From NCBI GenBank assembly GCA_951406725.2, contig OX597824.1, forward strand, positions 29,884,001-29,948,000: 64,000 nt of DNA. The letters are read 5' to 3'. Numbering within the stretch: position 1 is the stretch's first letter; each line of letters begins with the position of its first letter. Below the pieces are notes generated by a model, which was given only the letters and a program-made list of their open reading frames with translations, made no database searches and had not been told where the DNA came from. Shown piece after piece: positions 3,839 through 63,038 of this stretch. The position numbers were made by a program, and so were the translations under genes. Source of the stretch: Octopus vulgaris. Its lineage: Eukaryota.

Positions 3839-4306
<468 letters not shown>

Positions 4307-4504: not shown

Positions 4505-4539
4505 GTTTAACGTTTCGAGCGGAGCTCTTCGTCAGAAAC
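4505..4539 (-). ncRNA. Minimal type-I hammerhead ribozyme motif in a Penelope-like pLTR fragment (~4410-4610)
   Basis: Minus strand gttt-CTGACGA-a-gagc(tcc)gctc-GAAA-cg-T-T-aaac: intact core, stems I and II pair, palindromic ACGT stem III. Confidence 0.7.
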
Positions 4540-6474: not shown

Positions 6475-6655
6475 CATATATATGTGTGTGTGTGTGTATC
6501 TATATATGTATATATATATGCATGCGTGTGTGTATCTGTGAGTATGTGTATATATGAATATACAGTGAGACGTTTGTAACAACAGGTGTTTATTTTAACA
6601 ACGACGTATAAAACAAATTACAGGTGTACATTGTTCATTTGTCTTTTTCTTTTTC

Positions 6656-6720
<65 letters not shown>

Positions 6721-7215
6721 CAACAACAACAACAATAATAATAATGATAATAATAATAATAATAACAATAATGATAATAATAAACAATGACATCAACCAA
6801 AAAACCGCAATTAGCACCTGTGAAGAATTAATGCTTATTTTGTGAGAAGGGAAGTGTGATTGTGTACTTAGAAATGGACAGAGGTTAAAAGCAGACAAGG
6901 ACCTCTGATCTTGTTTGTCCACGGTTATGTATCAAAGGTTGACGATAGACAAATAAACAACAGCTTACACACACACATACATACACACACACGCACATTT
7001 GTTTATGTGTCGAGTTAGAATAGAAACAGTTTAACATTAAACCAAAGAGTTACTTCAATACTTTCTGTAGAGCACATTTTTATTATACTTTTAGAAGAGA
7101 AGGTGAGTGACAGGGACTTCGCAGTTTCTGCCCTGTACTCTTCGTCGGACTGTTCGAAGCCGTTCTCACCTGTCTAATTGTAAAAGTATATTATACATAC
7201 ATATATGTTTCTATA

Positions 7216-7281
<66 letters not shown>

Positions 7282-7313
7282 CACACACGTATCGGTGTTT
7301 TATATATGGGTGG

Positions 7314-7378
<65 letters not shown>

Positions 7379-7508
7379 GCAAATAACCCCCCCCCCCCAA
7401 AAAAAAAAAAAAAAACAAAAAACAAAGAACAAATACAAATAAAACTACAACGCGAGAACGTGGTACATGTAAAGTATTAGCAGGCGCTCAGGGAAGGAAA
7501 AAAAGATG

Positions 7509-7543
7509 GTTTAACGTTTCGAGCAGAGCTCTTCTTCAGAAAC
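7509..7543 (-). ncRNA. Minimal hammerhead ribozyme motif, second copy of the 4.5-kb family (~7425-7605)
   Basis: Minus strand gttt-CTGAAGA-a-gagc(tct)gctc-GAAA-cg-T-T-aaac; flanks align with 4430-4600. Confidence 0.7.
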
Positions 7544-8204
7544 AGGAAAGTCCAATAGAAAATGAAGACAGAGGAAGAAAATCGCCAACGATTCACATGT
7601 GGCCAAAACTGGAGCACTACCATATATATATATATATATATGGTAGTATCCCAGTATGGCCACAGCATTTGAAGCGCATAAAAATATACAACAGTCATTT
7701 CTCTTGTTAGACTTTTGGTCTTGGTTGAAGTGTTTTTCATCAGAGAAGAATTAAGGTATGCCATGTTCACGAGGGTTTTTAATCTTGTTAAGTACCTCCT
7801 TGGGACGGATCTAACGGTTTTCCTGCATATTTACAGATATGAATCGGCCTCATCTCACTACATACTACTCATATCAATTGTTCACGCATGCGTGTATGTT
7901 TGAATATATGTATGTGTATGCGTGTGTGTGTATGTTTGTGTGTGTGTGTGTGTGCGAGCGGGCGCGAGCGTGTGTGTGTATGTCAAATATTTATAACAAA
8001 TTGCAGTGACTTCATGGAATGTATAGCAATGATATTTCGACAGAAAATCATTACGGAACCAAAATATCAACATTAAAACTTATACCAAACGTTTTCATAT
8101 TTACTATAACCCACACCGACAATATTTCAATCGTAATATTTATATTTATTCTCTTCAATACATTTGATATTAATGGGCGTGAAAGACACACACTTTCACT
8201 ACTG

Positions 8205-8244
<40 letters not shown>

Positions 8245-8454
8245 TAAATATGTATACACACACGTAAATGTCGAACGATGATAGTGGTTGTTCAACACCG
8301 CATTAGTGAATATAATTTCTTTATTTGCGAATTAAGGCTAGCATTGGTTTCATGTTAAGAAAAGTAGGGAAATATCCTAGTGTCTTAACAATTTTTCAAG
8401 CCGATCAAGTGAAGAAAGGTGTTTGTACATATACGTATATACGTATGTATATTA

Positions 8455-8672
8455 TTTTAAAACAAGTATATTATTGACAGTGACTTCGAAGTTATACTCG
8501 AGACTGCTCCTCCGAGATTGGAGCAGTCTCGAGTATAACCAGCCGAAACTGCAAAGATAATCTGGAATTCGACTGACGAAAGAAAACCTGGGATGACCCG
8601 TCCCTGTTTTATCTTGTCCCTTTTTGTATTCTTTTTTATATACATATAGCGGCGTATGTACACTTTGGTCTC
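8455..8672. mobile_element. Hairpin-containing insertion adjacent to (TA)n
   Basis: 20-bp perfect arms 8491-8510/8520-8539; reverse complement shares aaaaagggaca..aaaacagg with 4072-4093; left part similar to 12550-12580 and 42286-42314. Confidence 0.55.
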
Positions 8673-8728
<56 letters not shown>

Positions 8729-9531
8729 ATACGTATATGAAAATCTGTATATGCATATATATGTATGTATGCATGCATGCATGCATGTATATGAAAGTCT
8801 GTATATGCATATATATGTATGTATGCATGTATAGATACGCTTACATACAACACATACATTTATACATAAGTGTGTATTTTATATATGTGTATATACATGC
8901 ATGTATGAATGTACGTCTAGTTTTGGTTTAGTCTCTATGTGAGAAATCAATATCGTGGTAAATATACCGAGAGAGAAAAGCTATGACCTAAAGTTTGCTC
9001 TCCTCATCATATGAACATAGATATCCTTTCAGACTTGACAAGAGCGAGTAGAATATTAGCAATGAGACAGCTGATACAATTATTTTCGCTGTTTTTACGA
9101 ATTAATATTATAAATATCTTGATAATGGGATAGCGAATCATATAAACATGGTTGTGTCAAATGTAAAACAGCAATTGAAATTTGCTCGTTTGTATTTTCG
9201 TTTATGTTTTTTTGAAGGAGGTTTTTGTCGTTTGTTTATAGTTTGGCTGTTGTATTTTGCTTTATTTTCGTTTTTTTTTTTGTTTGTTTGTTTGTTTTTG
9301 TTTTTGTTTATTTTTACAAGATGTTGTCTGATAATGCATCATTCGCAATAATCGTATCATTTGACTGGACATCTGCGTTAATATGAAGTATTGACGTAAC
9401 CAGCTAGAAAATTACAGTTAGTACGGCTGTAAATTCCAAAACTAACATTACTGTTCTATTGATTCCACCTTCAACGAAAAATCATGTAAAATTAACATAT
9501 ATTTCGTATGATATAAGCGACAAGCACATTA

Positions 9532-9574
<43 letters not shown>

Positions 9575-10059
9575 CAAATGAAAGAGTTTTTTTTTTAACA
9601 ACCTATTAATATACTAATAGAATGTATATATGAAACATCAGAACAACATGAAAAATTTTGTATAAAAAATGATGTTATCTGTCATAAGCGCAGGCGTAGA
9701 AGTGCGATAAAAAGTTTGCTCCTCCAACCTCCTGGTTCCGGTTTCAGTCCCACTGCATGAAATTTTGGGCAATCTCTTCTTTTATAACCTCGGGTCGACC
9801 AGATGTTATGAAAATTTTCAATAAATTTCTTTAGAAATACGTGATTTTTTTTTCATAACATTTCTGGAGATCGGGAATTTATATATGTAGTGTACCTTTG
9901 GGTTTCAGCTATCCTAAGGGAAACAATCCCTTCCAGATTAAGCTAAGTTGCGGCGGTCTTCGACGCTTGAATTTTAAATTAGAGAATGAAGAAAATGGTG
10001 CTCAGAATAAACACATTTAATATTTCGTTTTCATATTCCTAAACTTCTTTCTGTTGAGG

Positions 10060-10298
10060 CTTAGATAAAGGAAGTTCAAATGGCTTGGTCGCATAGTCAG
10101 AGCACAATGTAAGAAAATACTGTTACTAAAAGGAAAGATAAACCGGTAAGCACTCGAGAGAAAGACTAAGAACAAACTGGTTTGAGAACATCAAGGACTG
10201 GGTCGAACCATCATAAGGTGTATGTGTAAGAATGGCAGAGAGAAGATCCGAACGGAGATCTTTGGTATTCAACCTACTCTGAGCAAATGGCACTTAAT
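10060..10298 (+). mobile_element. Decayed RTE-clade LINE 3' end
   Basis: Manual translation across a frameshift gives RKFKWLGRIVR..RLRTNWFENIKDW..RMAERRSERRSLVFNL, the typical RTE ORF C-terminus, with stops. Confidence 0.65.
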
Positions 10299-10436
10299 TA
10301 TGATGTGGTGATTGTGGTTGTGGTGGCGGCGGCGGCGGATGTGGCGGTGGCGGCGGATGTGGCGGTGGCGGCGGATGTGGCGGTGGCGGCGGATGTGGCG
10401 GTGGCGGCAGTGGCGGCGGCGGTGGTGGTGGTGGTG

Positions 10437-10468
<32 letters not shown>

Positions 10469-10489
10469 GGTGATGGTTGTTGGTTGTTG

Positions 10490-10521
<32 letters not shown>

Positions 10522-10614
10522 GGTGGTGGTGGTGGTGGTGGTGGTGGTGGTGGTGGTGGTGGTGGTGGTGGTGACGATGATGTAGATGAAGAAGATGATG
10601 AAGATGATGAAGAC

Positions 10615-10659
<45 letters not shown>

Positions 10660-11401
10660 GATGATGACGATGTTGTTGATGATGATGCTGAAGACGATGA
10701 TGATGATCATCATATGCCTATTATATATTTTTCCTGATCATCTCCAATAGCATTCGCATGCAGCGTTTTCCCCTGTCTACTCTTTCCCATAATCAATAAT
10801 CTGAACGGACCAAACATTAACGCATTAATACCACTGAGATATCATTGCATCCCAGCCTAAAAAGACCGAAAACAAAATTCAATGGAACTACTACCACTTG
10901 TTTGGAAACAAGAGACATGGCTGGGTGATTAGGAAGCTGACTTTGGAACCAAGCGGTTATGGGTTCAGTCTTACCTCGCAGTGCCTTGGGTAAGTTGTCT
11001 TCTACCATAGCACAGGGCTTACCAATATCTTTTGGGCAAATATGGTAGACAGAAACTGTGCGCAAGCCTGTCGTATACATACATATGTATACATATACAT
11101 GTATGTATGTGTATATGTATGTATGTATGTATGTATGTGTATATATCTATATATATCAATATATATATATATATATATATATATACGGCAAAAATGACAT
11201 GCATCAGCCGGTAGACATTCTGTTATGTCTATTTATTCCAAAACAAAAGGGACTATTATAAGAATACATATGCAGATACTGTGTGCCACACAAATATATA
11301 CTAGTAATACATTAAAGAGCAAAAGATTAAAAGATCAGTTTCTTACGGCCGTTTCTGCCAAGAGGCCACGATATCCTCCATGCTAGCTCTAACTCTCACA
11401 G

Positions 11402-12967: not shown

Positions 12968-13790
12968 GGTGATCTGATCAATAAGTATCCGGACTGTTGT
13001 CATAGTAACGAAGCAAAAGCACGAAGAGTGAAACTGCTTGGCACATATTGTCCTTGACCTCTGCTATGCATGAGCACTAAGTTTTAACGTTCTAACTCAC
13101 TTCCGCTATTTACAGCAGTGCTTCAAAGGAAGGTGTGTCGTGCGTGATCATCACATTAACCATGACAGAGAAAGTTGAGCAGAGAATCTGCAACAAATTT
13201 TGCTAAAAGCTTGGTGATACCTACTCAGAGGCCTACGCAAAGTTTCAAAAAGTTTTCATCGTTCTCGACACAATTAAGGAGAGTTTGTGCAACTGAAACC
13301 CGAATGTCTTTTTGGTCAGCTGAAAGCAGTTTTGGCACGAACTTGGCAGACAACTGTCTCATACACAAATCTTCAGTGATATTGGACTGAACTGAACCGT
13401 AACTAATCTTCACATCCTCTGATAACTCACGGATGTGGATTCGACGATTTCGCCTCACAGCTGCACGTACGTCTGCGATGTTTTTCTCAGTTCTGCTGGT
13501 TGAGGGTCTCCCAGACAGTTCGTTAATATCGAGATTTTTTCTGTCATTTTGGAAACGTCTGAAGCACTCGTACACTTGTATGCGGCTCATCCACTCTTCT
13601 CCATTCACTTTCCGTAACTTTGCGTAGATCTCTGAGCAGGTATCACCATGACAAGTTTCTCTGTCGTGGTCAATACGACGATCACACGCCACAAACGTTC
13701 TTTCCAAGCACTGCAGTAAACAGCGGAAGTGAGCTAGAACGTTACAATTTAATGCACTACTCTGCGTGTTCTAGTTTTTTTTACTATAGT
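12968..13790 (-). mobile_element. mariner relic with two inverted 5' ends; transposase N-terminal pseudogene 13225-13707
   Basis: ORF with HTH motifs MSRIQVYECFRRF..SGRPSTS..IRELSEDVKISYGSV..SAKFVPKLL; 13065-13245 is an inverted copy of 13615-13760; TIR-like ctgatcaataagtatccggact. Confidence 0.85.
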
Positions 13791-13964: not shown

Positions 13965-14712
13965 ATACATTCCTCTCGTACTGTTCTGACCTCGTCTACA
14001 GAATTCATATTTTTCCGTCCAAATGATTTTGAAGACTGCCGAATAAATATTTCTCCTTTCCCTACCCACTGTCTTCGGCGCTTGACATTTTTATAGAAAG
14101 CCCATTTCTCGTCACCAGTCACTATTCGGTCAAAAAAAGGTTCATTCGTGAGACGTGGCAACAAAGAAGAGCTTACATTCACTGTCTGCGCGCGATTGGA
14201 CTCAGAACGTTTGTGAGGAACCCATTTACCCAGTTTGCTGACTTTTCCGATGGCATGAAGGTGTCGACGAATGGCTGAATGACCAAATCCAAGTTTCTCT
14301 GCTAGTTCCTCGACAGTTACGATTGGATTTTGTTCCACCAGATTTTGCAGGACGTCCTCGTCGAGCACTACAGATCTTCCAAGACGAGGGTCGTCCTCTA
14401 GGCTGTAGTTTCCGGTTCGGAATTTCTGGAACCACCGTTGATACTGGCCCCAAATACTGCATTATTATTCCTCGCACTTTGCATTACGTTGTTACCCTTA
14501 TTGAACGCATAAAGCAAAATATGCTGAATATGCTCCTTTGTCACTTCCATTATAGCATTGAAAAAATAATTGTTAAACTCGAACTGCACTCTTCAAAACT
14601 TGCACTAAGAATAAGTACAAGGTGAAATTACTACCTGCTTTTATAGCAAGTTGATACAGGTACTTTATCCCGCCCCACTAATACTTTTAGCTCATGCAAT
14701 TGAAAAAAACCG
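13965..14712 (-). mobile_element. mariner transposase pseudogene, internally deleted
   Basis: MEVTKEHIQHILLYAFNKG..GKWVPHK..DRIVTGDEKW joined directly to C-terminal GRKNMNSVDEVRTV; frameshifted. Confidence 0.9.
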
Positions 14713-15864: not shown

Positions 15865-16448
15865 TATTATTAGTTGTACAATTCTATATTTAAGAGATGA
15901 GGAACTATGTACATTACTTACATTATTTACATTTGATGGATATTTGTCCTCATTTTGTTTGTTGCTAACAACAACAATTCGGCTGATATACCCTCCAGCC
16001 TTCATCGGGTGTCATGGGGAAATTTCGAACCTGTGTTCTCATTCCTAAGGTAGTTTTCGATGTTGAGCTGGCAGAAACGTTAGCACGCCGGGCGAAATGC
16101 GTAGCCGTATTTCGTCTGCCGTTACGTTCTGAGTTTAAATTATTATGGCTTATGGCCATATCACGTTGAAAGCACCGGTTCTCGTCCGATCACCGAAGTT
16201 AAGCAACGTCGAACCTAGTTAGCACTTGGATGAGTGATCGCTTGGGAAACCTAGGTGCTGTAAGCGTCACTAAACGGTGTGGCATCAGCATGGCCGCAGC
16301 TCTGAGTTGAAACTACAGAAAAAAAGAAAAAAATTATTACTATTGTTGTTGTTGTTGTTATTAGTATTATTATTAATATTATTATTCCGGTCACTGCCTG
16401 AATCGAACATGGAATCTTGAGGTTAGTAGCCCGCGCCCTTAACCACTT
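15865..16448 (-). mobile_element. tRNA-headed SINE carrying a degenerate hammerhead motif, interrupted by nested insertions
   Basis: Head 16448-16385 (agtggttaagggcgcgggctactaacc..gttcgattc), (AAT/AAC)n linker, body 16062-15865 with gacac-CcGATGA-a-ggctg..cagcc-GAAt. Confidence 0.55.
16148..16267 (+). pseudogene. 5S rRNA: 5S rRNA-derived sequence (retrocopy or SINE3 head)
   Basis: GCTTATGGCCATATCACGTTGAAAGCACCGGTTCTCGTCCGATCACCGAAGTTAAGCAACGTCG..GGTGCTGTAAGC; full length, terminal stem GCTTAT/GTAAGC, no T-run terminator. Confidence 0.9.
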
Positions 16449-25147: not shown

Positions 25148-26326
25148 TTGGATTGAGGAATAATTAACGAGCGGTTTTTTTGGGGGGAGGGGGGGTCAAA
25201 TTTAAAAATGCTCGCAGAATTAAAAAGCATTGGTAAAATGTTTGATGTTATTTGAATGAGAATTTTTTTCTCTACAAGTTAATGTGTCATTTGATTTTAT
25301 TCATTTTTGTGTATTTTCAGATCATTAAAATGGAATGTCATGTGGACAAAACTGAGCATTTTCGACACCATTTCCTTTTGGCATTTAATTGAGGTGTCAA
25401 GCTTGCTGAACCTACTCCTGATATTTGTGCTGTGTATCGACGAGGAGCAATGCCTCAAAATACCTATTTCTTTACTAGCCACAAGGGGCTACACACAGAG
25501 AGGACAAACAAGGACAGACAAACGGATTAAGTCGATAATATTGACCCCAGTGCGTAACTGGTACTTATTTAATCGACCCCGAAAGGAAGAAAGGCGAAGT
25601 CGGCCTCGGCAGAATTTGAACTCAGAACGTAGCGGCAGACGAAATACTGCGAAGCATTTCGCCCGGCTTGCTAACGTTTCTGCCAGCTTGCCGCCTTGCA
25701 ATGCCTCAAAATACCGCCCGCCGTTGACTTTTGCGCTTCCAAAATGAAAATTCTGACCTCAGAGATGAATCACACACCGGTCAACCAATTGAGTTCGATG
25801 AAGAGGGATTGAATCAACTTCTTCACGAAAATCCAAGTCTGGCCGTTTGGCCAGAGAATTGGCGGAGCAGATGGACTGTGATAAAAAAAAAACTGTGGGA
25901 AACCACCTTCACTCAGTGGGCAAGGTTCATCGAACTCAGTTGGTCGACCGGTGTATGATCCGTCCTTGAGGTCAAAATCCCTATTTTTGAAGCGCGAAAA
26001 CCAACAGCGGTTGGTACTTCGAGGTATTGCTCCTTCTCCATACACAGCACAAATCTCACGAGTAGTTTCGACGAGCTTAGCACCTCGATTAAATGCAAAA
26101 GGCAAATGGTGTGGAAAATGCTCAGTTTTGTCCATGTGACGTTCTATTTTAATGATCAGAAAATACACAAAAATAAATGAAAATAAAAAATCAAAACGCA
26201 CTATCTTGTAGAGCAAAAAATTCTCTTTCAGATAACGTAAAACATTTTACCAAAGCATTTTATTTCTGCGTGCATTTTTAAATTTGAAAAAGAAAAAAAA
26301 GCTCATGAATTATTCCTCCAAATACC
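25148..26326. mobile_element. mariner relic made of two inverted 5' halves
   Basis: Minus-strand MDKTEHFPHHLPFAFNRG..TREICAVYGEGA..WFSRFK..GRPTEFDE; homologous plus-strand start at ~25340; ends 25148-25330 and 26140-26326 are inverted homologues. Confidence 0.8.
25465..25697 (-). mobile_element. Full-length SINE family C with target-site duplication
   Basis: Direct repeat gcaatgcctcaaaatacc at 25447-25464 and 25698-25715. Confidence 0.92.
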
Positions 26327-29125: not shown

Positions 29126-29393
<268 letters not shown>

Positions 29394-41106: not shown

Positions 41107-41306
41107 AGGGTAGCGAATATTCGTTAGAAATATCACCACCAGTGGCCTAGCATGTATAAATAGTCAATAGACAACATATTCTTATTATAAAACAGTGTAC
41201 ATTTAAACATAAGAGAAAACTACCCTTTAACAGGTAATTTTTACATGGCTGCTTCTTCTAGAATGTAAAAAATTACCTGTTAAAGAGTAGTTTTCTCTTG
41301 TGTTTA
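41107..41306. mobile_element. Hairpin insertion in (TA)n
   Basis: ~43-bp arms from 41204 and to 41306, 16-nt loop; shares agtggcctagc with 49596. Confidence 0.6.
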
Positions 41307-41601
41307 TATATATATATATATATATATAACGTTGATGACGAAGAGAAGAGTGGAGATTTATTCATATCCAAAGACTTGAGTACTATACAATGAAACGTTG
41401 TAGATAGCCGACAACTTATCAAATTTTTTAGATAATACGGTATCCGTCAGAATAACATATCTCTTCTATACTATACACACACACGCACACACACATGCAG
41501 AGACACACACACGCACACATACACATTAGACAAAAATAGATAACAAAGCCAAGGCTGTGAGGAGTTTTCATGACATTTATAAGGAAAGAGATATAGATAT
41601 A

Positions 41602-41649
41602 GTCTTACAGCTGTTTCTGGGATATTATGGATATCCCTTCATCAGAGAC
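41602..41649 (-). ncRNA. Type-I hammerhead ribozyme motif (left arm)
   Basis: Reverse complement of the 41711-41758 motif with one loop II substitution. Confidence 0.8.
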
Positions 41650-41710
41650 GATATGAGATGGTTAAATAGAGGTAAATGTTTGTGTTTACGTCTATTTAAC
41701 ATTTCACATC

Positions 41711-41758
41711 GTCTCTGATGAAGGGATATCCGTAATATCCCAGAAACAGCTGTAAGAC
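41711..41758 (+). ncRNA. Type-I hammerhead ribozyme motif (right arm)
   Basis: gtct-CTGATGA-a-gggatat(ccgta)atatccc-a-GAAA-cagctg-TA-agac: all core nucleotides, GUA cleavage triplet, palindromic stem III. Confidence 0.85.
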
Positions 41759-43044
41759 TATATCTATATCTCTTTCCTTATAAATGTCCTGAAAACTCCT
41801 CACAGCCTTGGCTTTATTATCTATTTTTGTCTAATGTGTGTGTGTGTGTGTGCGTTCGTGTGTGTGTGTATGTGCGCGCACGTGCGTGCGTGTGTGTGTG
41901 TGTGTGTGTGTGCGTGCGTGTGTGTGTGTATCTTTGTGTCTCTGTCCCTCACCACAGTTTGACAACCGTGTTGGTGTGCTTACGTCTCTGTAACATGGCG
42001 GTTCGGCAAAAAACCTACAAAATAAGTACCAGGCCCTCAAACGAAAAACATACGTACTGGATCGATTCATTTGACTAGAAAATTCTTGAAGACGGTGCTC
42101 CAGCATGGCCGCAGTCTAATAACTGAAACAAGTAAAAAGATTTTTAAAAAACGATTTGTAAATATGAAAGATCCCGATATATAGAAATGATATTAATCAT
42201 GGGTTCTGAAAGAGCTAAAGTGAAGAAAGAGTATTATAGAAATGGATTGTATTCAATGCTGTGTGGTTAAGGGGGCTTGCATTCAACAAGAATATTATTG
42301 ATAGTGACTTCGAAATTTCGGCCAGTTAAGCTATGGGCGGACTATGTACATATGTATGTGTGTTTGCGAGCATGTATATATGTGTGTGTCTTTGTATTTT
42401 TATCTATCCCACCCACCACTGCCTGAAAACTGGTGTTGGTTTGTTCACGTTCCCGTAACTTAGCATTAAAAAAATTAAGTACCGGAAATAAAACCCTTCG
42501 AGGCGGTGACTCAGTATTGTCGTTGTCCAATGACTGGAACAAGTGAAAAAGAAAGAACATGGAGGAGAAAGCTCCAATAATATCACCCAAGAAAAAATAT
42601 TTGGTCAGTAAGAGCCAACCGATAAAAACGATTTATACTATTTTATCAATAGCAAAATGAAGCAAAGCAAACTCGGTTAGAGCAGGAGTTAAAGTCCAAA
42701 ATATGAAGGAATATAACTAACTTTTGCAATGTTTTTTTATACAACGAAGAACAACATAATTTAAATACTTATTTTTAATAAATGGAAATTAATTGATCAA
42801 AATTAATAAATGAAAATTAATGGCTTCAGAGACAGAAATTTAATTATTTGGATATATTAATTCATATTATTATTTCACTTTCTACTTTTATTCAATGTGT
42901 TGCTTTTTCATCGATGTAAAAAAAAAAGAAGTCGCAAATGTGTAACAATTTTCAAAGGGAACATGTAAATGAATATGTGTGTGTATATGCAATTTGCAAA
43001 TATATATAGATACGTACACATATGCAGACATACAAATGTAAACA

Positions 43045-49534: not shown

Positions 49535-49757
49535 TAAAATCACAATAAGGGTGAAAAAATTGAATATTAATTAATAACATCAATTTAAAACACCAAGTGG
49601 CCTAGCGTAAAAAAACTGTGATACAGTAAAAATTATTAATACAAGTAATAAGAGAGGGACCACATGTGGTCACTCTAACGCTAGAAATAGATCCGCAAAA
49701 TAGATCCGATCTATTTCTAGCGTTAGAGCGACCACATGTGGTCCCTCTCTTATTACT

Positions 49758-49791
<34 letters not shown>

Positions 49792-58754: not shown

Positions 58755-59015
58755 CAACACTTTGAATCATGAAGAATTTGTACCGGATTTTTGCAGAGTT
58801 TTGAATTATTTCTAAACAATTTTTTGCAATTATCTGATAATACAGACATAGTCTTGTCCAAATGCATCAGTAAATTAACATTGATTTTTTTTTCACCGTT
58901 GTTACAATCATCTGAAATGGAACAGTCAAAGCTCGATATTCGAGCAATTTTGCTATTCAACTTCAAAAAAGGACGTAAAGCAGCTGAAACTGCTCGCGAT
59001 ATCAACGAAACGTTC
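58755..59015 (+). mobile_element. mariner 5' fragment
   Basis: MEQSKLDIRAILLFNFKKGRKAAETARDINETF, mariner first HTH. Confidence 0.8.
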
Positions 59016-59737
59016 GCTTCGGATATTTTACGTGTTTGCTATTGTTAATTGAAAGGTGTTGCATTATTTTGTGCTGCTTTTCAGCGGTTGTATGATTGTA
59101 CTGTCCCTCAGCGTTTTAAAGAGAGATGGCTGAATTTGAAAATAGTTTTTATTCCGACCTGACTGAAACGTCTGAAGAAGAAATGGTTAGGGCTATCAAC
59201 AAAATAGAAAAATCTTTAAAGGGGAAAGGTTTTGCAGAAGTGGCAGGTGTCTCTAAGTAGGGAGTGAGCCTGAAAAACCTGAAGGATTTGGGGAAAATAC
59301 TGGAGAAGGAGGGTGGTGACGTGAAATTGTCATCAACGAATGAGGTTCTTTAAAACATGGAAGAAAGCAGAATTGTTTATAAAGTGTATTCAATCAAGGA
59401 GAGAAGAATTAAAAATGAGGCTACGGAGGAAATAGAGAAGGTATTGAGGCCAATCTGGCAAGATATATCATATTTTGCCAGAGGAAGCAGTTATGGGACT
59501 GTTGTTTGCATTTCAAAGAGAAAGAAAAGGCAAAGGAGCACTCAGCAAATACAATGAAGATGGAAAGAGTGATCCTCCAACCGATATACCTTGGAAGAAG
59601 AATTTCCAGAGTCAGAGTAGAAGGAATCCCCCCTGAAATAGACGTGGCTTGGGTAGTAGCAGTAGTATTTCTTGGAAGTGAGAAGGAAGTGGCCGTACTC
59701 CAAGTCACAGAAACAGAAGTAAGGAATTGGCGAGCGT
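59016..59737 (+). mobile_element. Probable LINE (L1/Tx1-like) 5' end / ORF1 pseudogene
   Basis: Purine-rich coding-like stretch from ATG ~59126 with a stop and frameshift; ..QPIYLGRRISRVRVEGIPPEID.. resembles ORF1 RRM regions. Confidence 0.5.
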
Positions 59738-60390: not shown

Positions 60391-60891
60391 GGTTAATATC
60401 TAGATCCGCACCCGGTGGGAAAAATGAGATCCGCACCCGGTGGGAAAAATGGAAACGAAAATGTGTAACAGTTGTAAGGCATCGTATATTGACGGAATAA
60501 GACGGGAAAAAAGCGCGCTGACAAACGGGGGTGGGGCTCGGGAAATTCCCAGGATCAACCGTAGAGGCAAAAATGGAAAAAAATATGTGTAACAGGTGTA
60601 AGGCATCGTATATTGAAGGAATATGACGAAAAAAAAGCGCGCTGACAAACGGGGGGGGGAGGGGCTCGGAAAATTGCCTACGATTTAAAGAAAAATTTAC
60701 ACATATTTTTTTCCATTTTTGCCACCTGGGCGTGGATCCTCTACGGTTGATCCTGGGAATTTCCCGAGCCCCCACCCCCCGTTTGTCAGCGCGCTTTTTT
60801 CCCGTCTTATTCCGTCAATATACGATGCCTTACAACTGTTACACATTTTCGTTTCCATTTTTCCCACCGGGTGCGGATCTAGATATTAACC
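60391..60891. mobile_element. Mutator-like (MULE) foldback MITE
   Basis: ~160-bp TIRs beginning GGTTAATATCTAGATCCGCACCCGG; 9-bp TSD ctccctttc at 60382-60390 and 60892-60900. Confidence 0.92.
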
Positions 60892-62603: not shown

Positions 62604-62706
62604 AAATGGTAAGACAACAAAAGAATGAAAGAGACCTCGATATTATGTAAATAGAGGAATTTATCTGTAAATGTAATATGTGACAATTATTCGGTAACAA
62701 TGGCCG

Positions 62707-62767
62707 GATAACTGAAGAGATAGTGGCGTGGATTTCCACCTCGGCATCCGAAACTCGGAGTTTTATC
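62707..62767 (+). ncRNA. Hammerhead ribozyme motif inside a hairpin insertion (62601-62810)
   Basis: gataa-CTGAAGA-[g..gtgga(tt)tccac..c]-GAAA-ctcggag-T-T-ttatc; enclosed by 35-bp arms 62662-62696/62773-62807. Confidence 0.65.
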
Positions 62768-63038
62768 ATGGCTACCGAATAATTGACACATATTACATTT
62801 ACAGATATATATACATATATTTCTACTTTGCAGACACCTCGGGGAAAGTATCTTCTACTATATATACATATGGTCTCCTATAGGAGAAATGAAACTGTTT
62901 GGCACACGTTGGACTCGGAGTACACACGGAAGGATACGATTAAGCAGCGTAACGCTCTCTGGCGCTTCTGCTAATTCACTGCCTTACCAAGTAGTAGTGG
63001 TAGTAGTAGCAGCAGTAGTAGCAGCAGCAGTAGTAGTG

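Follow-up and report, generated by a model that had tools for sequence, protein, structure and literature searches.

Head-to-head minimal hammerhead motifs in the Octopus vulgaris genome, a probable fold-back scar of a Penelope-like insertion

Two short copies of a very abundant hammerhead repeat lie head to head in the Octopus vulgaris genome, within a window of 64,000 nucleotides (contig OX597824.1, positions 29,884,001 to 29,948,000, forward strand; all coordinates below count from the first letter of this window). Both the palindrome that they form and the hammerhead motifs that they carry are real, and a preliminary description of this DNA had recognized them correctly. The stubs are probably the one-off scar of a Penelope-like element (PLE) whose cDNA, during insertion, folded back and served as its own template. 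Most likely, the palindrome is a further case of a PLE insertion scar of known type, with minimal hammerheads that are likewise known.

Results

Comparison of the window with itself revealed a near-perfect palindrome at 41526-41834. Its left arm (41526-41686, minus strand), 161 nt long and 5'-truncated, is a copy of the hammerhead repeat and likely represents the 3' end of a PLE pseudo-LTR (pLTR), and its right arm (41685-41834, plus strand) is a copy of 150 nt. The two arms, 11 nt apart in length, stand head to head, read outward from the centre and share a 2-nt overlap (TT) at the junction (41685-41686), just to the right of which lies a trough in depth. Aligned in sense, they differ by six substitutions and one indel in 151 columns (~95% identity), with a longest perfect stretch of 56 bp, which bears out the palindrome as first described. 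Four of the seven differences fall within the first 30 nt of the right arm, beside the loop (41685-41714; post hoc Fisher p = 0.03).

A separate spacer at the centre is not what the contigs show. In run X7, ten contigs trace the left arm on the minus strand through the 8-nt loop (41677-41684) as far as 41686, where they pass into other shared sequence. Because they pass through the loop, it is best read as the left arm's own 5' sequence, an assignment based on one row of loose contig ends (ten contigs, one run). The left arm thus reaches 41686, one base past the first letter of the right arm (41685), and the shared dinucleotide is TT.

Both arms stop at the identical 3'-end base and then pass, in sense, into (TG)n. 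On the left, an imperfect (CA)n tract (41475-41525, plus strand) adjoins the 3' end of the arm and was likely the primer side of the target. On the right, an imperfect (TG)n tract (41835-41929, plus strand) adjoins the 3' end of the arm and runs into the tail of a SINE-like repeat. The self-comparison gave no mirror symmetry of the flanks outside the microsatellite tracts; the mirror takes in the 3' end of the repeat and a few bases of microsatellite, but none of the unique flank. A one-sided tail of 30-40 bp is absent from view, both arms stopping at the same base. As to a target duplication, the ends lie within microsatellite, where a duplication of 2 bp (AT) can be read as one possibility.

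The neighbouring repeat (41930-42140, plus strand), which lies outside the insertion, corresponds to the 3' half of a SINE-like repeat that is dispersed in many copies through the window. The repeat seems to resemble octopus SINEs. No SINE head was found directly upstream of this copy, so the empty site is not inferable as a split SINE.

The motif of the right arm (41711-41758, plus strand) is a minimal type I hammerhead. It has a 4-bp stem I (GUCU/AGAC, 41711-41714 with 41755-41758) and the core CUGAUGA (41715-41721) followed by an extra A (41722). Stem II has 7 bp (41723-41729 with 41735-41741) and is closed by the pair G41723-C41741. On the 3' side follow a second extra A (41742), GAAA (41743-41746), the palindrome ACAGCUGU (41746-41753) and A17 (41754), and the predicted cut lies at 41754/41755. 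The minimal type I hammerhead of the left arm (41602-41649, minus strand; C3 at 41645, predicted cut at 41606/41605) mirrors the right motif, with loop II as the sole difference. In both arms the core positions (C3 U4 G5 A6 N7 G8 A9, G12 A13 A14 A15.1, and U16.1 H17) are complete and the GUA triplet is present. Thus, all the parts named at the outset (CUGAUGA, the 7-bp stem II, GAAA, the palindromic stem III and GUA) are in place, and the cut position given with them agrees with the motif layout. The labels "intact" and "complete" overlook the extra A between C11.1 and G12, which can alternatively be read as an A.A mismatch at the base of stem II. A mismatch of this kind beside the core departs from the canonical type I hammerhead, for which the available text of Perreault 2011 requires a paired N10.1-N11.1 at this place.

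A hammerhead search had been proposed as a check. With a descriptor adapted from Cervera 2014 (PMC4209133) and widened for the palindromic helix III, it recovered four motifs in the window, the two of the palindrome and those at 4535 and 7539, and none in 30 block-shuffled windows. The Rfam hammerhead families gave no match at the gathering score, and none at E values up to 10. Rfam miRNA precursors did match, but below the gathering score and only on account of the long hairpin. At 62712, a CUGAAGA...GAAAC arrangement between 44-bp inverted arms (62659-62810) failed the descriptor and is possibly a decayed hammerhead.

The window is microsatellite-rich, animal-type DNA with about ten other inverted repeats. 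The motifs at 4535 and 7539 (both minus strand) belong to solo copies of a second minimal hammerhead family, which lie in the same orientation 3.0 kb apart and have a 4-bp stem II, an extra N10 and no extra N11. Downstream, each copy ends at (TA)n after about 130 nt, and no reverse transcriptase (RT) match lies between them. Together, the other inverted repeats and the two solo copies suggest that stubs of this kind are common in the window. Further short palindromes occur at 4088-4239, 49639-49762, 41198-41312 (210 bp left of the hammerhead palindrome), 29314-29361 and 8491-8539; four have a one-sided (TA)n, and no hammerhead core was found in any of them. A complex inverted repeat at 60427-60880 has arms of 166-184 nt (90% alike) and an internal direct copy, and a 5S rRNA gene or pseudogene (105.6 bits) lies at 16148-16266 (plus strand).

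Among the 196 window open reading frames (ORFs) of at least 62 aa that passed a complexity filter, the Pfam scan gave no RT or GIY-YIG match. As candidates for a host gene or a PLE ORF, it returned only low-complexity matches and fragments of a mariner-type transposase helix-turn-helix domain (HTH_48; 14401-14592, 25773-26246, 58773-59045 and 13228-13770).

The stretch, or part of it, is present in 20 of the 24 listed runs, which come from four organisms and 12 studies; no RNA run is listed among the indexed holders. Four of the 24 runs were placed on 41646-41860 at 85% likeness, a threshold that favours conserved letters, with 41824-41860 masked, so that the 3' ends of other copies, and any (TG)n there, lay outside view. 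In three DNA runs of three organisms, 1693, 1925 and 1203 contigs matched the arm, and the summed depth reached maxima of 312,868, 139,401 and 240,237 on the hammerhead. The arm is therefore a very abundant repeat. Relative to hand-picked single-contig depths the peak is 6,600-11,400, a ratio that is not a copy number. Depth declines on either side of the hammerhead and, among the rows listed, the loose ends there carry other flanks, which indicates that the ribozyme is the part common to subfamilies.

No core position varies in 4% of the depth or more in the three DNA runs. At 41742, the extra A prevails in the family (T 2-5%, G about 1%, and no row with a deletion), and we therefore regard it as a trait of the family and not as decay. 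Stem II is nearly invariant, and no paired changes are readable from the single-site tables, which are unphased. At loop position 41732, C makes up 49-61% and A 35-46% of the depth, and the right arm's G about 1%. In X7 there is also a deep class of contigs with C at 41765 (62% of depth), which is nearly missing from X1 and X3. A pattern scan of metagenomes returned four matches. All lie in what looks like bacterial coding sequence and share no more than 14-16 nt, and we attribute them to chance.

The centre of the palindrome is rare. At 41686-41693 depth falls to 877, 150 and 265 in the three DNA runs, 357-, 932- and 906-fold under the peak, and part of it stems from contigs that end at 41686. 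This trough equals 7-24 single-contig depths, so that a few further copies of the junction may exist. None of the pieces listed (24 of 4895) is a contig that spans the whole stretch. The loose-end evidence comprises 24 of 321 rows, contigs resolve palindromes badly, and a hole in depth is no proof. For a recurring palindromic mini-element of the MITE type, or for the PLE-mobilised palindromic unit of the preliminary description, such a collapse of depth in the contig data is not what one would see. Opposite-strand joints at 41648-41713 and 41656-41705 were set aside as the mirror continuation of a partly self-complementary reference. Another such joint, 41704-41780, was present in one contig each of X1 and X3 and may be another inverted junction of the repeat family with different truncation points.

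The RNA of the palindrome folds into a single rod of -251.9 kcal/mol (z -39), and none of 100 shuffles was equally stable. In the fold of a single arm, the hammerhead was not obtained as the minimum free energy (MFE) structure; the active fold of the monomer has -7.4 kcal/mol versus a minimum of -10.9. For the dimer, the active fold is the MFE, at -30.7 kcal/mol versus 2 x -10.9 for monomers. Inside the rod, keeping stems I and II formed and the core open costs 78.5 (plus strand) or 74.5 (minus strand) kcal/mol. Each palindrome RNA has one sense motif plus its antisense, as the preliminary description had it and as the head-to-head layout implies, and helix III would need a second molecule. 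Whichever strand is read through, the antisense arm is transcribed ahead of the sense ribozyme, whose complement is thus already waiting when it emerges. The motif would be set free only in transcripts that begin close to the centre. The order of synthesis, the cost of 75-79 kcal/mol and the need for a partner make the proposed switch between self-cleavage and a dsRNA rod unlikely. The palindrome RNA, if transcribed, can fairly be expected to serve as a substrate for ADAR or Dicer. A scan for sigma-70 promoters gave chance-level results, irrelevant to a eukaryote.

RNA run X23 (organism C), whose species may differ from that of the window, was read to about 6% (12,895,792 records). It contained 116 reads of the family, none at 99% or more and eight at 95-99%, all of which lie only partly on the stretch. 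Read mates fell on both strands alike (56/60). Depth at 41678-41693 was 0 in this one run, which leaves the centre uncovered, and no piled read starts or ends were seen, including at the predicted cut site; the RNA ends expected at 41754/41755 did not appear. Moreover, 81 reads in four loose-end rows extend past the cut site. The repeat family is transcribed at a low level, and largely uncut, in X23. As evidence on activity the run is weak, because the species may differ and because, in the available text of Frangieh 2024, a PLE hammerhead that cleaves in vitro also lacks RNA read ends. About 30 of the reads (loose ends at 41711 and 41768) indicate a transcript that shares the hammerhead region only and has other flanks. 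Differences at the 35 listed places comprised eight A>G and seven T>C versus five G>A/C>T (p = 0.18). This does not go beyond base composition, the reads come from paralogs, and the DNA runs compared are not of the same individual, so no A-to-I editing was called.

Discussion

The octopus motifs have the helix traits of the minimal hammerheads of PLEs. In the available text of PMC4209133, these are described with a helix II of 7-8 bp, a helix I of 4-5 bp, a G10.1-C11.1 pair, an extra nucleotide 5' of stem II (between 9 and 10.1) and a palindromic helix III. Their counterparts here are the 7-bp and 4-bp stems, G41723-C41741, A41722 and ACAGCUGU. The likeness to the same source further includes the core, a fold that depends on a dimer, a dispersed high-copy family and pairs on opposite strands. 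Such pairs are on record there at 100-700 bp, compared with 70 bp from core to core here, at the short end. For the published minimal hammerheads, the same text reports no cleavage of monomers and low cleavage of dimers.

The extra A before G12 is the norm in the octopus family, versus one of the 56 aligned rows in PMC4209133. The published descriptor permits one extra N11. Judged by row order, the row with AGAAA is that of a Cotesia bracovirus PLE, in which the opposite strand carries a second motif as well.

The layout likewise has its counterpart among PLEs. According to the available text of PMC3846280 and PMC8557442, EN+ PLEs generally leave inverted, 5'-truncated copies and are biased towards microsatellites. 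In rotifer PLEs, head-to-head inverted pLTRs with junction palindromes are the commonest arrangement, and head-to-head palindromes with overlapping, unequal arms have been interpreted as self-priming. The octopus palindrome shares with these the unequal, overlapping head-to-head arms, the junction palindrome, the microsatellite at the ends and no discernible target duplication. It differs in that both copies are only ~150 nt long and without ORF, both end at an equal base, with no one-sided 30-40-bp tail in view, and the microsatellite is CA/TG instead of TA. The PLE link of the preliminary description thus stands for the architecture, as a minimal hammerhead combined with a head-to-head layout is the known structure of inverted PLE pLTRs. 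Judged by motif and layout, the repeat itself likely belongs to the Penelope group. We found no publications on cephalopod hammerheads or on this repeat family in a search that had subscription papers, Repbase and Dfam outside its scope.

How such a pair could arise by fold-back can be outlined as follows. The PLE endonuclease would nick the microsatellite, and the 3'-OH of the top-strand (CA)n would prime reverse transcription starting at the family's 3' end. Synthesis would halt after about 161 nt, and the end of the cDNA (TT) would pair on AAA (41674-76), leaving an 8-nt loop. By extension, the cDNA would be copied to its start, giving a second arm with an equal 3' end, and the strand would be joined at (TG)n. 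Afterwards, the arms would have drifted by seven changes. The hammerhead of the source element is predicted to cleave as a dimer, and that of the scar is predicted to be silent, because read-through RNA would zip into a duplex of 150 bp.

Fold-back would explain why the loop is short, why the arms are nearly equal in length and why their 3' ends are identical. It also predicts a loop in the left-primed arm and arms of slightly different length, as is the case here (11 nt). The hairpin at the presumed cDNA end counts against it, as at 0.0 kcal/mol it is unstable on its own.

Alternatively, a dimeric PLE protein may have cleaved a (CA)n|(TG)n site on either strand and extended the two ends from an equal RT start, the two cDNAs then annealing at TT/AA. 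Purified Anolis PAc, a predicted dimer, cuts and extends both strands with an equal RT start (available text of Frangieh 2024). In agreement with this, both arms end at an equal base beside (TG)n in sense, and upstream of 55823 a SINE-like copy contains a (CA)n followed by a (TG)n. However, nothing would make independently primed cDNAs end so near to each other (within 11 nt), and the repeat family extends at least 30 nt farther upstream. In addition, both arms have C at 41772, where 57-71% of the depth is T, which points to one template or one subfamily. Both mechanisms require a (TG)n on the right, and the tract there is the microsatellite of a SINE-like repeat. We rank fold-back first, ahead of two-strand priming, which we consider possible but rather unlikely.

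There is little chance that the pair instead derives from a retrozyme- or SINE-like monomer, inverted at the DNA level by template switching in replication or by break repair. Such an origin would suit the lack of an ORF link among the window ORFs, the about ten other inverted repeats without a hammerhead motif, and the dispersal of retrozyme monomers in some genomes. According to the available text of PMC7229834 and 10.64898/2026.07.22.740005, animal non-LTR retrozymes are, like the octopus repeat, non-coding, equipped with a type I hammerhead, PLE-derived or PLE-mobilised, and known also as dispersed monomers. They consist, however, of direct tandem repeats with canonical hammerheads, from which circular RNA is released. 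In contrast, the window has only the two inverted copies of this repeat, with hammerheads of the minimal PLE type, and no tandem copy, with one sense motif per strand, so that excision of a monomer is impossible. Furthermore, the mirror reaches no farther than the 3' end of the repeat and a few bases of microsatellite, and it excludes the unique flank.

Still less likely is a non-coding palindromic unit that recurs in the genome and whose RNA alternates between cleaving itself and forming a dsRNA rod. All core bases are kept in both motifs, the arms are 95% identical, RNA of the family exists (116 reads) and the centre trough stays above zero, as such a unit would have it. Against it stand the 357- to 932-fold drop in depth at the centre, the energetic cost of the ribozyme fold within the rod, the antisense arm that always comes first, and, in the one RNA run, the uncovered centre and the lack of piled ends. 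A long-read fold-back or assembly artefact is the least credible explanation of all: no listed contig spans the junction, but the arms differ at seven places, the flanks are not mirrored, and at the five substitutions with depth one arm keeps the family letter (41703, C in 93-95% of the depth, as in the left arm; 41732, A in 35-46%, as in the left arm, and G in about 1%, as in the right arm).

As a single locus, the probable fold-back scar is of little significance, and its modest value lies in two points, the core variant and the symmetry of the pair. First, an abundant family has as its norm a stem II flanked on each side by an extra A, a state that is rare in the published alignment (PMC4209133). 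Second, young symmetric pairs, counted genome-wide, could separate fold-back from two-strand priming, an open point of the PLE mechanism in the available text of PMC3846280 and PMC8557442. A more far-reaching reading, which we regard as unlikely, is that the hammerhead with A.A at the base of stem II is the conserved, active ribozyme of an unreported high-copy PLE family, and that head-to-head pairs of this kind arise regularly when its enzyme primes from both strands at (CA)n|(TG)n sites. If true, such pairs would be the trace left in the genome by the two-strand extension that is observed in vitro, and many self-silenced duplexes of 150 bp would feed A-to-I editing in what is probably a cephalopod genome.
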